Virus record (IMG/VR): IMGVR_UViG_3300032268_000293
Span: 15,832-79,831 of that record
Length of the DNA: 64,000 bases
Origin: a virus
Strand: one strand, 5' to 3'
Shown one piece after another: positions 3,211-6,723 of the stretch. Under the pieces are notes generated by a model, which did no database searches, was not told the origin of the DNA, and saw nothing but the letters and a program-made list of their open reading frames with translations. Made by a program: the position numbers and the translations under genes. How positions within the stretch are numbered: position 1 is the first letter of the stretch; each line of letters begins with the position of its first letter.

Positions 3211-3592
3211 TTTCTTTTTCCTCTTCAAGAACAACTGGGTCTGGATGTGGTGGATAATCTTCTGTAAGTTCTCCACTGAATTCAATAATCGATTCGTAAC
3301 GGAAAGATCTCCAATCTTGTTTATCAAGATCAAAAACTGCGATTGAATCTTCAGGAGATTTTCTTTTACCGTTTCCAGTAGACTTCTTATCTTCTGGGAT
3401 AAGTTCTTCATTTAACGTACACCTCATCTTTCTAATTTCACCATTCACTTTCTTGAATGTGAGATTAACCTCAATCTCTTTCAACAATCCAGCGAACCAT
3501 TTTTTAAAGTTGGGATGATTAAGTTCTTCTTTGCGTCTCTTCTCTTCCTCAACATCTATAACGTCTATAACATCAATAATATCATTTGTCAT
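3203..3592 (-). CDS. WYL-2 / Sm-like SH3 beta-barrel protein (DUF2693-like)
   Basis: TFKKVNGEIRKMRCTL...VFDLDKQDWRSFR signature. Confidence 0.8.
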   Translation of the reverse strand: MTNDIIDVIDVIDVEEEKRRKEELNHPNFKKWFAGLLKEIEVNLTFKKVNGEIRKMRCTLNEELIPEDKKSTGNGKRKSPEDSIAVFDLDKQDWRSFRYESIIEFSGELTEDYPPHPDPVVLEEEKENE

Positions 3593-3920
3593 TTACTTCT
3601 CTCCATAAATCAGTACCCTCAAGAATAACACCCTTCTTTTGCGGATATGCTACACTAAATCTTTCACTCAATTCGTCTTTTGTCCCACCTTGGCAAATGA
3701 ATGCTTGGTTAGTTGTGTTGTATAAGAAATATTCGCTGTTGTGTTTCTCAACACGCATAGGAACAACGTTCTCTTTAAACTGTTCTTGTATTTCAGCAAG
3801 ATCGTTCGATAATTCATTATGTAATTGTTTTACAAGATATTTCGCATAAAGTTCTCTAAGAACCCAACCAGTATGAACTGCACCAATAATGATGGCAACT
3901 AAAAATAACAGATCAATCAT
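3582..3920 (-). CDS. hypothetical protein with N-terminal TM
   Basis: Tightly packed ORF in the operon. Confidence 0.6.
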   Translation of the reverse strand: MIDLLFLVAIIIGAVHTGWVLRELYAKYLVKQLHNELSNDLAEIQEQFKENVVPMRVEKHNSEYFLYNTTNQAFICQGGTKDELSERFSVAYPQKKGVILEGTDLWREVNDK

Positions 3921-4585
3921 AACAACTTATCTTGTTTGTACTCAGACAGGTCAACTTCCATAGGAACAACCTTCCAACCAATTGCGTTCAAGTCGTTCTG
4001 AACTTCATCATCAATATTACCTTCACCACCAGAGCAGTACCAATTCAAGTAGTCGCCTTCGCCGAGGATATCAGCAATCAAACCACCAGTAGCACGCCAG
4101 CTGTAACCTGTAGTGTAGTCGCCGTATACTAAGTCGTTATTACACAAAGTTGCGTAGAAACGGACACAGTAGTTTCTACTATTACGCATCTTAGTTTTGA
4201 TGGTATCGGAGTCTTGAATATTGCGTATAAGATTTGGTTGTTGAAGATCGATATGATCTTTGTCATCAGTAATGAAGTCTGTTTGCTTTTCAAAATCAGC
4301 CATCCACTCTTGACGTAGTTTCTCAAGAGTACCTGCTCGATCGCGTAGATAAACCTTGCTATGAACAGTAGAGAAAAAACTACTGAATGTGTTAAATTGT
4401 TCTTCAGTTAAAAACATCTCAAGTTTGTTAAAATCCAACTTACCAGAGTTGTCAGTCTTACCAATCATCACATGAATGTAATCAGGATGAGCATCGAACA
4501 CATTAATATATGTGGTTACGTCGCCATGGTCGATCTCCAAGTGTTCATGAATTTCAGTCTCAAGTTTATCAATTTGACTGTCCAC
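3917..4585 (-). CDS. hypothetical phage protein
   Basis: 222 aa; C-terminal SWRATGG...DYLNWYCSG motif; overlaps its neighbours. Confidence 0.7.
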   Translation of the reverse strand: MDSQIDKLETEIHEHLEIDHGDVTTYINVFDAHPDYIHVMIGKTDNSGKLDFNKLEMFLTEEQFNTFSSFFSTVHSKVYLRDRAGTLEKLRQEWMADFEKQTDFITDDKDHIDLQQPNLIRNIQDSDTIKTKMRNSRNYCVRFYATLCNNDLVYGDYTTGYSWRATGGLIADILGEGDYLNWYCSGGEGNIDDEVQNDLNAIGWKVVPMEVDLSEYKQDKLL

Positions 4586-4724
4586 GATGCTTCTCCTTGC
4601 GTGTGTATTTCTTTTTGTTTAACTCAACTCGACAACGATATTTTGGTGTGCGCAAATCCTTAGCAATCCAATTTCTTGGTTTACTTACGGGAATAACCAG
4701 CGCACATCGAGTATCCATCATCAT
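4569..4724 (-). CDS. ArfA-like (alternative ribosome rescue factor A-like) small basic protein
   Basis: Translated by hand: MMMDTRCALVIPVSKPRNWIAKDLRTPKYRCRVELNKKKYTRKEKHRGQSN. Aligns by eye with the ArfA core. AAGGA SD upstream. Confidence 0.6.
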   Translation of the reverse strand: MMMDTRCALVIPVSKPRNWIAKDLRTPKYRCRVELNKKKYTRKEKHRGQSN

Positions 4725-4866
4725 GTCCTTGTGTATATTGTTGCATACCTAGAGTATTTAAATAACTCTCCAACTCTTTATATTTTACCTCGGAAATATC
4801 ATTAATGTCAACCCCCAAGATTTGCAGGACTCGAACAGTGGCAAAATCAAGTTCGCTCTGATACAT
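4681..4866 (-). CDS. hypothetical protein
   Basis: 61-aa ORF in the operon. Confidence 0.5.
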   Translation of the reverse strand: MYQSELDFATVRVLQILGVDINDISEVKYKELESYLNTLGMQQYTQGHDDGYSMCAGYSRK

Positions 4867-5095
4867 CTTCGCGATCTTTCTTATTCATTGACCATGGTTT
4901 ATTTTTTGCGTCACGTTCTGCAAGTTCTGCTTGAATCATCTGTCGTTTAAATGTATTTCTTTCATCTTGAGATTTGAAAGGCATTAAAGCCAACAGTCTC
5001 TTTACTGTTTTCGACATAACATATGTTGATGTTGGTTTCTGTGTCCAAGAAATAAATTCAACATGCTCTGTTTTTCTAACTTTCTTTTTAGCCAT
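4847..5095 (-). CDS. hypothetical basic protein
   Basis: 82 aa, GAGGAG SD. Confidence 0.65.
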   Translation of the reverse strand: MAKKKVRKTEHVEFISWTQKPTSTYVMSKTVKRLLALMPFKSQDERNTFKRQMIQAELAERDAKNKPWSMNKKDREDVSERT

Positions 5096-5104
5096 AATTT
5101 CTCC

Positions 5105-5389
5105 TCATAGCATTCTTATTAAACCAATAGTATCAATTGTTGTTAGCAGGATGTAGTTAGCCAACATGCCAAATGATTTCCGAGTATAACTAGCCCAAGC
5201 ATACATAGCACAACCAAAGATCCAGATAGGATATAAAACAAGTAAGGGAGGATTAGGGACTGTGAGTGCCATAGTGATCGAACACCCGATAGAGATCGCC
5301 CAAGCCAAAACCTCAACAACGAAACGTAATTTGTTACTTTTCCAATCATCTTTTATCCATGCAAATGTATTTATCAAAAATCCTAACAT
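5105..5389 (-). CDS. small 3-TM membrane protein
   Basis: Three hydrophobic helices in 94 aa. Confidence 0.7.
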   Translation of the reverse strand: MLGFLINTFAWIKDDWKSNKLRFVVEVLAWAISIGCSITMALTVPNPPLLVLYPIWIFGCAMYAWASYTRKSFGMLANYILLTTIDTIGLIRML

Positions 5390-6264
5390 ACTTCCACCAC
5401 TTTTAGTTCAAAGGTATTAGAGATACCTTCGTAACCGAGATATCCACGAGGATTACACACAACACGTGTGTTCCCGATCATATAATCATATCGCTCATGC
5501 GTATGACCATGTGTCCACAATTTAATTTGGGGGTGATCTAAAATATATTCTACATAGTCGTTGTGATAACCACCATTCATGTACTCATCGTCAGAGTAAC
5601 GAGGATGCATAGATTGCCTTGATGGGGTGTGATGTCCAACAACAACTACTTTATCGTTTTCAGAAACAATGTGTTTGATGTAATCAAAACATTTTTTGTT
5701 TTCTTCAACAGCATCTTCAGGACAAAACGTCGCGACACGTGTTTTGAATGATGGGATTTGACGCCCATCTTCCGTAACCTCAAATGTTTTGTAACTTACC
5801 TCACGATTGCTGTTTTTTACACAGTTAAAATCGTTCATCATACTTTTGATGTGATACATTGTCATTGGATCTTCATTGTTCATGTTAGTCCACAATGTAC
5901 CACCAACAAATGTAATGTCATCAATCTTCAAAAGTTCTTTATCAAGAACATGAACATTCGTCAAGTATTTGAATTTGTGCTTCAACGAAGACAACGTATA
6001 TCTGAAGTCGCCATGGTAATGTTCATGATTACCAGCTACATAGATAACATGTGGAAACTCAGAAGCGCAATCCTGAAAGAATCTATGATACATGTTCGAT
6101 TTGTTTCTTGCGAAACCAGTCTCGACTTGTTGTTCGTTCCATTCATCAAGATCGTTCTCAACTAGAATGTCACCAGAGAGGATGAGTACATCAACATCTC
6201 CAGGATTCTTTAGGATAAGTGGTCCGAACTCTAAATGAACATCGGAACATACTGCAATTTTCAT
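5383..6264 (-). CDS. calcineurin-like metallophosphoesterase
   Basis: DVH, GD, GNHE, HH and GHTH motifs. Confidence 0.92.
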   Translation of the reverse strand: MKIAVCSDVHLEFGPLILKNPGDVDVLILSGDILVENDLDEWNEQQVETGFARNKSNMYHRFFQDCASEFPHVIYVAGNHEHYHGDFRYTLSSLKHKFKYLTNVHVLDKELLKIDDITFVGGTLWTNMNNEDPMTMYHIKSMMNDFNCVKNSNREVSYKTFEVTEDGRQIPSFKTRVATFCPEDAVEENKKCFDYIKHIVSENDKVVVVGHHTPSRQSMHPRYSDDEYMNGGYHNDYVEYILDHPQIKLWTHGHTHERYDYMIGNTRVVCNPRGYLGYEGISNTFELKVVEVC

Positions 6265-6267
6265 AAA

Positions 6268-6645
6268 TTAACCTCTACGCATTCTTGAAATATCTTTCGC
6301 TTCCTCTTCGCTAAAAACAGGAACAGCGTTAGACTTATGTAAAGTGCCGATACCAATAATTTTGGTACCAGTGTAAACTGGATTTGGTTTTAAAGTGCCA
6401 CCATGAGAATTACCAGTGCTGACGCTAGGATAGTGGACAGATTCTCCCCGAGGTGGAGTACTACGATTTGACTTGTAAGTGTCACTGACTGATACAGTTG
6501 TTTTAGGTTTGACATCGTATTTCCTTTTCAAAATTTCCCATGATTCTTGTTGAGCAAAAAATCTGCGTTTTTCCTCAGCAGATTTAAATTTCTGCTTACG
6601 TTTCTTGGTAGAAGTGGTGGTAAAAAAAGCAGGCATCATACCCAT
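6268..6645 (-). CDS. conserved hypothetical basic protein
   Basis: C-terminal GIGTLHKSNAVPVF...ISRMRR motif; has its own promoter. Confidence 0.75.
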   Translation of the reverse strand: MGMMPAFFTTTSTKKRKQKFKSAEEKRRFFAQQESWEILKRKYDVKPKTTVSVSDTYKSNRSTPPRGESVHYPSVSTGNSHGGTLKPNPVYTGTKIIGIGTLHKSNAVPVFSEEEAKDISRMRRG

Positions 6646-6665: not shown

Positions 6666-6723
6666 ATTATACTTTAGATTCGTATTATTGTCAAGCATTA
6701 ACCCTACTGTAAGTAAGGTTATT
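6666..6723 (-). promoter_or_regulatory. early promoter with upstream CCCTAC-N5-GTAGGG-type palindrome
   Basis: TTGACA-N17-TATAAT at 6666-6694; imperfect palindrome at 6697-6723. Confidence 0.8.

Follow-up and report, generated by a model that had tools for sequence, protein, structure and literature searches.

A short ArfA-like gene of the DUF7230 family in an uncultured T4-like phage and its putative role in ribosome rescue

Does an open reading frame (ORF) of only 51 codons give an uncultured phage its own relative of ArfA, a factor with which bacteria rescue stalled ribosomes? A sequence-only reading of the window (the whole 64,000-nucleotide stretch analyzed here, from IMG/VR record IMGVR_UViG_3300032268_000293) had proposed so, on the strength of a match to the core of Escherichia coli ArfA, and had considered either a constitutive rescue factor or a decoy. 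ArfA of E. coli (YhdL, PF03889; structures 5MDV, 5U4I, 5H5U, and 5MGP) is an RF2-dependent rescue factor. It is made from a stop-less message cut by RNase III, carries a hydrophobic degradation tail, and is repressed by transfer-messenger RNA (tmRNA). We therefore asked whether the phage ORF is a gene, whether it is related to ArfA, and what its product might do.

The phage record and the ArfA-like locus

The window lies within a 79.8-kb IMG/VR record with an estimated completeness of 49%, which encodes a T4-type DNA polymerase, a DnaB-like helicase, and a ribonucleotide reductase and belongs to an uncultured T4-like phage. Judged by the DNA polymerase, the nearest phages among those compared were cyanomyophages, with approximately 56% identity, and megablast found no match to the locus among the searchable GenBank phages. 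Public runs containing at least one-quarter of the words sampled from window positions 3500 to 6300 were labelled "metagenome," "fungus metagenome," freshwater, or wastewater, and not marine; no RNA run was listed for this stretch. Some 9.8 to 10.1 kb before the window start, the record carries a circularly permuted two-piece tmRNA on the minus strand (L039:5724-6078, in G000:C1), about 14 kb from the ArfA-like gene and on the same strand, with the tag ANDESYALAA (ARAGORN). Its best Rfam match was beta_tmRNA (RF01850, 175 bits) rather than an alpha type, followed by tmRNA_permuted (RF04321) with 154 bits. Two-piece tmRNAs have been described in Melnitz-like phages and pelagimyophages, in a study that does not mention ArfA (PMC9004378). 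The phage record thus holds parts of two rescue routes. Both would depend on host proteins, since no SmpB or release-factor gene was found in the 79.8-kb fragment. The RF-1 domain with its GGQ motif (PF00472) likewise had no match in the record, and the 51-amino-acid peptide, which lacks it, is not ArfB-like.

The ORF was found on the minus strand at positions 4569 to 4724 (51 codons from the first ATG, as in the ORF list), with the peptide quoted in the sequence-only reading. It is opened by three ATGs, and the real coding sequence is probably 4569 to 4718 or 4569 to 4721 (49 to 50 codons), starting at the third or the second of them, because a Shine-Dalgarno-like AAGGA (4726 to 4730, minus strand) precedes the third ATG by 7 nt, the relatives L044 and L045 have ACG in place of the first ATG, and database copies of the protein start at residue 3. 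The Shine-Dalgarno-like site reads AAGGA or AAGGG in the relatives L040 to L045. The conserved core (residues 18 to 46; 4587 to 4673, minus strand), which aligns to residues 14 to 45 of E. coli ArfA, spans the putative A-site mid-region (Pro, aromatic, R-x-R-V-E) and a basic tail (KKK-Y-x-RK-x-KH), and an in-frame TGA follows it directly.

Both neighboring genes overlap the ORF. The 61-codon gene upstream (4681 to 4866, minus strand) covers the start of the ArfA-like gene with its 3' end, in another frame, and keeps the same position in relatives with 51 to 87% identity. Downstream, a 222-codon gene (3917 to 4585, minus strand) has a GTG start preceded by GGAG and extends over the final 17 nt of the ORF, which leaves no room for a terminator or hairpin after it. 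Along these lines, we found no arfA-style 3' hairpin (the gene region folds no better than shuffles, z = −0.35) and no terminator-like site on the strand of the gene. A calcineurin-like metallophosphoesterase (window 5383 to 6264, minus strand; PF00149; phrog_1649, E value of 1.4e−55), also syntenic in relatives, is encoded four genes upstream of the ORF.

A candidate sigma-70-like promoter, TTGACA-18-TAAAAT (4782 to 4811, minus strand), matches the consensus at 11 of 12 positions and lies inside the upstream gene, some 60 nt ahead of the start codon. The element is kept in the relatives L040 to L045, a conservation that is ambiguous because it overlaps coding sequence. A perfect sigma-70 consensus, TTGACA-17-TATAAT (12/12; 6666 to 6694, minus strand), is found just upstream of a 125-codon gene (6268 to 6645). 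Both promoter-like elements suggest an early gene block read by the host RNA polymerase, and no T4-type late promoter (TATAAATA) was seen near the ArfA-like gene.

The ORF is a real, conserved gene. A word-indexed search retrieved 35 close homologues of the protein, an exhaustive search with the family profile matched 1,034 clusters at 50% identity (E values up to 0.001), and a motif scan found at least 213 viral contigs in IMG/VR with the family motif; NCBIfam contained no match for the protein. T4-like phages of Acinetobacter, such as 133 and ZZ1, also have a DUF7230 homologue. Lack of conservation in relatives, which the sequence-only reading had held to count against its proposal, is not what was found: the six closest IMG/VR contigs keep eleven genes around the ORF in the same order, and the ORF itself is 73 to 88% identical, with several of its neighbors at 35 to 57%. 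Pairwise dN/dS values ranged from 0.12 to 0.43 (44 codons, pairs with unsaturated dS).

Relationship to DUF7230 and ArfA

The protein falls into Pfam family DUF7230 (PF23876), to which Pfam assigns no function, with 32.2 bits and an E value of 1.2e−7 over residues 15 to 50 (gathering threshold of 27 bits). The ArfA family itself (PF03889; gathering threshold of 25.5 bits) gave no match to it even at an E value of 10; with the same tool, E. coli ArfA reaches 89.5 bits. A literature search found no mention of DUF7230. The hallmark of the family, N-x-[IV]-A-K-D-L-R-T-P-K-Y-R-x-R-[VI] followed by K-K-x-Y-x-R-K, is present in the phage protein, and A21, D23, L24, P27, K28, Y29, R30, K37, Y40, R42, and K43 are invariant columns of the family.

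The proposed match to the ArfA core was borne out. BLASTP against E. coli ArfA (NC_000913.3) gave 17 identities in 37 positions (46%) with one gap of three residues, at the GKG of KGKGS. Single-sequence phmmer against the PDB returned ArfA chains only marginally (E value of about 0.6), and a profile of 29 homologues had ArfA as all six of its best matches (E values of 0.002 to 0.003; profile positions 14 to 46 on ArfA residues 13 to 48). When 182 family members were compared by hhalign with an ArfA alignment from which phage copies had been removed, the two aligned over 41 columns with a probability of 91.5%, an E value of 8.5e−7, and a score of 42.4. Reversed ArfA columns scored 16.6 and 30 column shuffles no more than 13.2, so that basic composition, to which the sequence-only reading feared the likeness might be limited, does not account for the match. 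The ArfA comparison set consisted mostly of Enterobacteriaceae plus three others, since PF03889 gave just 3 hits in 201 sampled genomes of the class to which the SAR86 genome belongs. In the ESM Atlas, neighbors at the level of leads were DUF7230 (0.92) and an ArfA cluster (0.91).

Sequences that bridge both families exist in either direction. Scanning bacterial genomes for K-D-L-R-T-P-K-Y, we found single chromosomal genes of Pelagibacteraceae that join the KDLRTPKY hallmark to a K-K-G-K-G-S-F tail and score 31.6 to 32.1 bits with PF03889. Conversely, the "ArfA" of Pseudoalteromonas phage J2-1 (ATN93434.1, 51 amino acids) combines an N-terminal half of the ArfA type with a DUF7230-type tail devoid of GKGS. 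Taken together, profile matches and bridging sequences indicate that DUF7230 and ArfA are two ends of one family and that the phage gene is truly homologous to ArfA.

Two other resemblances were observed. The next PDB matches after ArfA were N-termini of the zinc-type ribosomal protein uS14, another 30S-binding peptide, with nonsignificant E values of 0.1 to 0.35 and the motif I-A-K-x-x-R-T-P-K-F-K-V (window 4632 to 4679, profile positions 14 to 29). In addition, the [IV]-A-K-D-L-R-T of the hallmark (window 4641 to 4667, residues 20 to 28) resembles a conserved segment of RF2 domain 4, where the Pelagibacterales consensus is V-K-D-L-R-T and K320, D321, and R323 are invariant in the RF2 alignment; this is a post hoc match of five residues that may be due to chance.

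Proposed function and alternative readings

The best explanation, and in our view a probable one, is that the gene encodes a short ribosome-rescue factor of the ArfA family belonging to the DUF7230 branch. The ArfA-like reading is supported by the profile homology and by the conserved, syntenic ORF, and its sequence details proved correct. To see which parts of ArfA are kept, we combined the hhalign register with the cryo-electron microscopy description of E. coli ArfA (Demo et al. 2017, PMC5378476). In that structure, Pro23 packs on A1492/A1493, and the backbone of residues 25 to 29 forms a strand that pairs with residues 213 to 217 of RF2, extending the sheet of domain 2. By sequence correspondence, P27, Y29, R30, R32, and V33 of the phage protein align to P23, F25, R26, R28, and V29 of ArfA, with P27, Y29, and R30 invariant in the family, so that Pro23, an aromatic residue at 25 (Phe to Tyr), Arg26, and Arg28-Val29-Glu30 are all kept. 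The same holds in the tail for Lys33/34, Tyr39, Arg41-Lys42, and Lys44-His45. Residues 31 to 48 of ArfA fill the mRNA tunnel, and truncation at Asn47 leaves an active protein while truncation after Met40 does not (PMC5378476). At the sequence level, residues 35 to 51 of the phage protein contain 7 Lys/Arg and a His, and its end aligns with ArfA residue 50. The ORF does stop right after the core, as had been noticed, close to the end of this shortest active truncation, and the phage protein is similar in size to the active form of ArfA, with a basic C-terminal half in both. The GKGS loop described as lacking corresponds to the alignment gap at G35-K36-G37, which makes the tunnel segment three residues shorter than that of ArfA; the residues of KGKGS are individually nonessential in ArfA (PMC6299226).

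The other half of the molecule is a different matter. The N-terminus of the phage protein is unrelated to that of ArfA, with no sequence counterpart of its N-terminal minidomain. In ArfA, a hydrophobic patch of Leu19, Leu24, and Phe25 binds RF2 Trp319 and explains the RF2 specificity (Demo et al., PMC5378476). The positions of Leu19 and Leu24 are D23 and K28 in the phage protein, both invariant in the family, and that of Ala18 is K22, where the family has an invariant or near-invariant Lys. Thus, the docking half looks ArfA-like from its sequence, while the half expected to activate the release factor is clearly different. A complex prediction with a Pelagibacterales RF2 as stand-in (18-row alignment) and the ORF (29-row alignment) scored 0.07, short of the mark of 0.32 for an answer in either direction; ArfA and RF2 make their contacts on the ribosome, and the isolated peptide is expected to be disordered away from it.

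These changes leave room for a peptide that docks on nonstop ribosomes in the same way but follows another partner logic, working with RF1 in addition to RF2 in the manner of ArfT, or contacting the release factor differently. With the patch that confers RF2 specificity converted into the charged, invariant A-K-D-L-R-T-P-K-Y and the minidomain missing or unrelated (many family members have only 4 to 8 residues before the motif), the clade may activate RF1 too, and the 40-amino-acid ArfT, which ends at an ordinary stop, is a precedent for the use of either factor (PMC6299226). However, the elements holding domain 2 of RF2, namely the strand and the Pro and aromatic positions, are retained, and we consider such an altered partnership distinctly unlikely. 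The distribution of the family does not discriminate RF1 use, since the sampled hosts have both RF1 and RF2.

A second alternative is that the peptide occupies the empty mRNA channel or A site without bringing about release, either blocking tmRNA-SmpB or the host ArfA or parking vacant ribosomes. The diverged RF2-contact residues would fit, as would the change at Ala18, a small residue in the N-terminal fold whose replacement in E. coli (A18T) blocks release but not RF2 binding (PMC5378476). The distribution of the motif in cells points the other way. The family profile matched 30 of 41 sampled Pelagibacterales genomes (G004 and G206 to G245), with one copy each and including forms with and without GKGS; RF2 was present in 39 of the 41. 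Genes with an RF-1 domain numbered at most two per genome (RF1 and RF2), all of full release-factor length, so that no ArfB was found in any of the 41. A published survey reported arfB in most Alphaproteobacteria, and arfA was found in none of the 2,376 Alphaproteobacteria of a 15,259-genome survey from 2024 (PMC11633108). On sequence grounds, those of the sampled Pelagibacterales genomes that have the short ArfA-like gene thus contain no other recognizable back-up to tmRNA. In SAR86 single-cell genomes, a short ArfA-like gene follows tatA-tatB-tatC on contigs of 180 to 320 kb, and PF03889 had no match elsewhere in these genomes. It overlaps the end of tatC and lies between ubiB and an acetyl-CoA synthetase gene (L004:2966-4141 in one of these genomes), a core chromosomal location and not a prophage.

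Since the motif is retained in free-living bacteria, on the chromosome and in a single copy, and neither ArfB nor another ArfA was found in those genomes, rescue fits better than self-inhibition, and the decoy put forward in the sequence-only reading is disfavored. The phage's own tmRNA also argues against shutting down trans-translation, and we judge mere occupation of the ribosome very unlikely. As for a chance open frame over real neighbors, with a likeness to ArfA due to Lys and Arg richness, the ORF is indeed very short, overlaps the ends of both adjacent genes, and gives ArfA an E value of only about 0.6 in single-sequence phmmer, but with more than 1,000 clusters at 50% identity matching the family profile, synteny, conservation above the neighbors, dN/dS far below 1, and reversed and shuffled profiles that fail to reproduce the match, this idea can safely be set aside.

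We return to the rescue reading. What speaks for it is the retention of the functional positions of ArfA, the presence of RF2 in nearly all of the Pelagibacterales sample, and a plausible cellular role. Against it stand, at the level of sequence, the failure of PF03889, the Asp and Lys in the RF2 patch, the Lys at the Ala18 position, and the shortened tunnel segment. If the protein works in this way, the mid-region (P27, Y29, R30, and R32-V33-E34) would lie in the A site and hold a class I release factor of the host (by comparison with ArfA, RF2), which would then hydrolyze the peptidyl-tRNA and make the ribosome recyclable. Given the normal stop right after the core, the product would not depend on a stop-less message, and any transcription of the gene would yield it, probably in the early phase and from a host-type promoter. 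Alongside the phage's permuted tmRNA, it could keep host ribosomes available while mRNA is degraded or cleaved during infection. Ribosome binding, release-factor recruitment, timing of expression, and benefit to the phage are steps that we infer.

A wider proposal would make DUF7230 a distinct and very large clade of mini-ArfA proteins (more than 1,000 clusters at 50% identity, from many phages and from chromosomes of streamlined bacteria, SAR11 and SAR86 among them) that effects rescue through the charged A-K-D-L-R-T-P-K-Y contact, possibly with RF1 too, and that phages deploy unregulated, together with a tmRNA of their own, against ribosome stalling that results from the breakdown of mRNA by the phages themselves or from host defenses that cleave mRNA or tRNA. 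As a whole, we regard this proposal as unlikely. If the phage protein is active, phages would bring an always-on back-up rescue factor besides tmRNA, and stalled ribosomes would be a real bottleneck, or a target of defense, in infection. The tie between DUF7230 and ArfA offers a testable function for more than 1,000 unnamed clusters of small proteins and would add Alphaproteobacteria (SAR11), as well as SAR86, to the bacteria with ArfA-type rescue. The changed residues at the release-factor contact could also serve as a natural experiment on the choice between RF1 and RF2.

Comparison with known rescue systems

Compared to E. coli arfA with its stop-less message, the phage gene has an ordinary stop codon and no hairpin. 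The genes of Pelagibacterales and SAR86 (35 to 47 residues) share with the phage protein the hallmark in the N-terminal part and an ordinary stop right after the core. Some of them pass PF03889 and others are DUF7230-like, and some have the GKGS loop. Their N-termini are much shorter, the phage copy having about 15 extra, partly hydrophobic residues.

Phage-borne ArfA homologues had already received that name in a few places. The description of the gene as unannotated holds for this record, but not for the family, as IMG gives the name "stalled ribosome alternative rescue factor ArfA" to proteins 83 to 90% identical to this one. In pelagiphage HTVC027P, gp30 was reported in 2025 as an ArfA with high expression both early and late (PMC12753301). 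Together with ATN93434.1 of phage J2-1, gp30 is, like the present gene, a short ArfA homologue carried by a phage and ending at a normal stop. The J2-1 protein also has 51 amino acids and no GKGS, but unlike the present one, it keeps the ArfA-type N-terminal half, and gp30 is reported to match PF03889, whereas the present protein matches DUF7230 only. Two further phage sequences came to our attention. The gp99c protein of Salmonella phage Arash (L038:1417-1641) carries the deposited name "ribosomal protein L2" and is a canonical homologue of ArfA, with KGKGS and 63% identity to residues 4 to 41 of E. coli ArfA. In Pseudomonas phage pf16, an ArfA-like ORF that lacks annotation (L036:1486-1638) lies on the strand opposite to the annotated pf16_199.

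Outside the ArfA family, ArfT of Francisella (40 amino acids, ordinary stop) accepts either RF1 or RF2 (PMC6299226), and BrfA of Bacillus subtilis is described as RF2-specific and produced from a stop-less message (PMC6881298). Neither has a detectable sequence relationship to the present protein. All of them are tiny basic proteins, and ArfT and BrfA are believed or known to act through the empty mRNA channel together with a class I release factor; ArfT, like the present gene, is not regulated via a stop-less message. With phage ArfA labels already present in IMG, in GenBank, and in one paper, the remaining interest lies at the level of the family, in a putative mini-ArfA clade with altered release-factor contacts.
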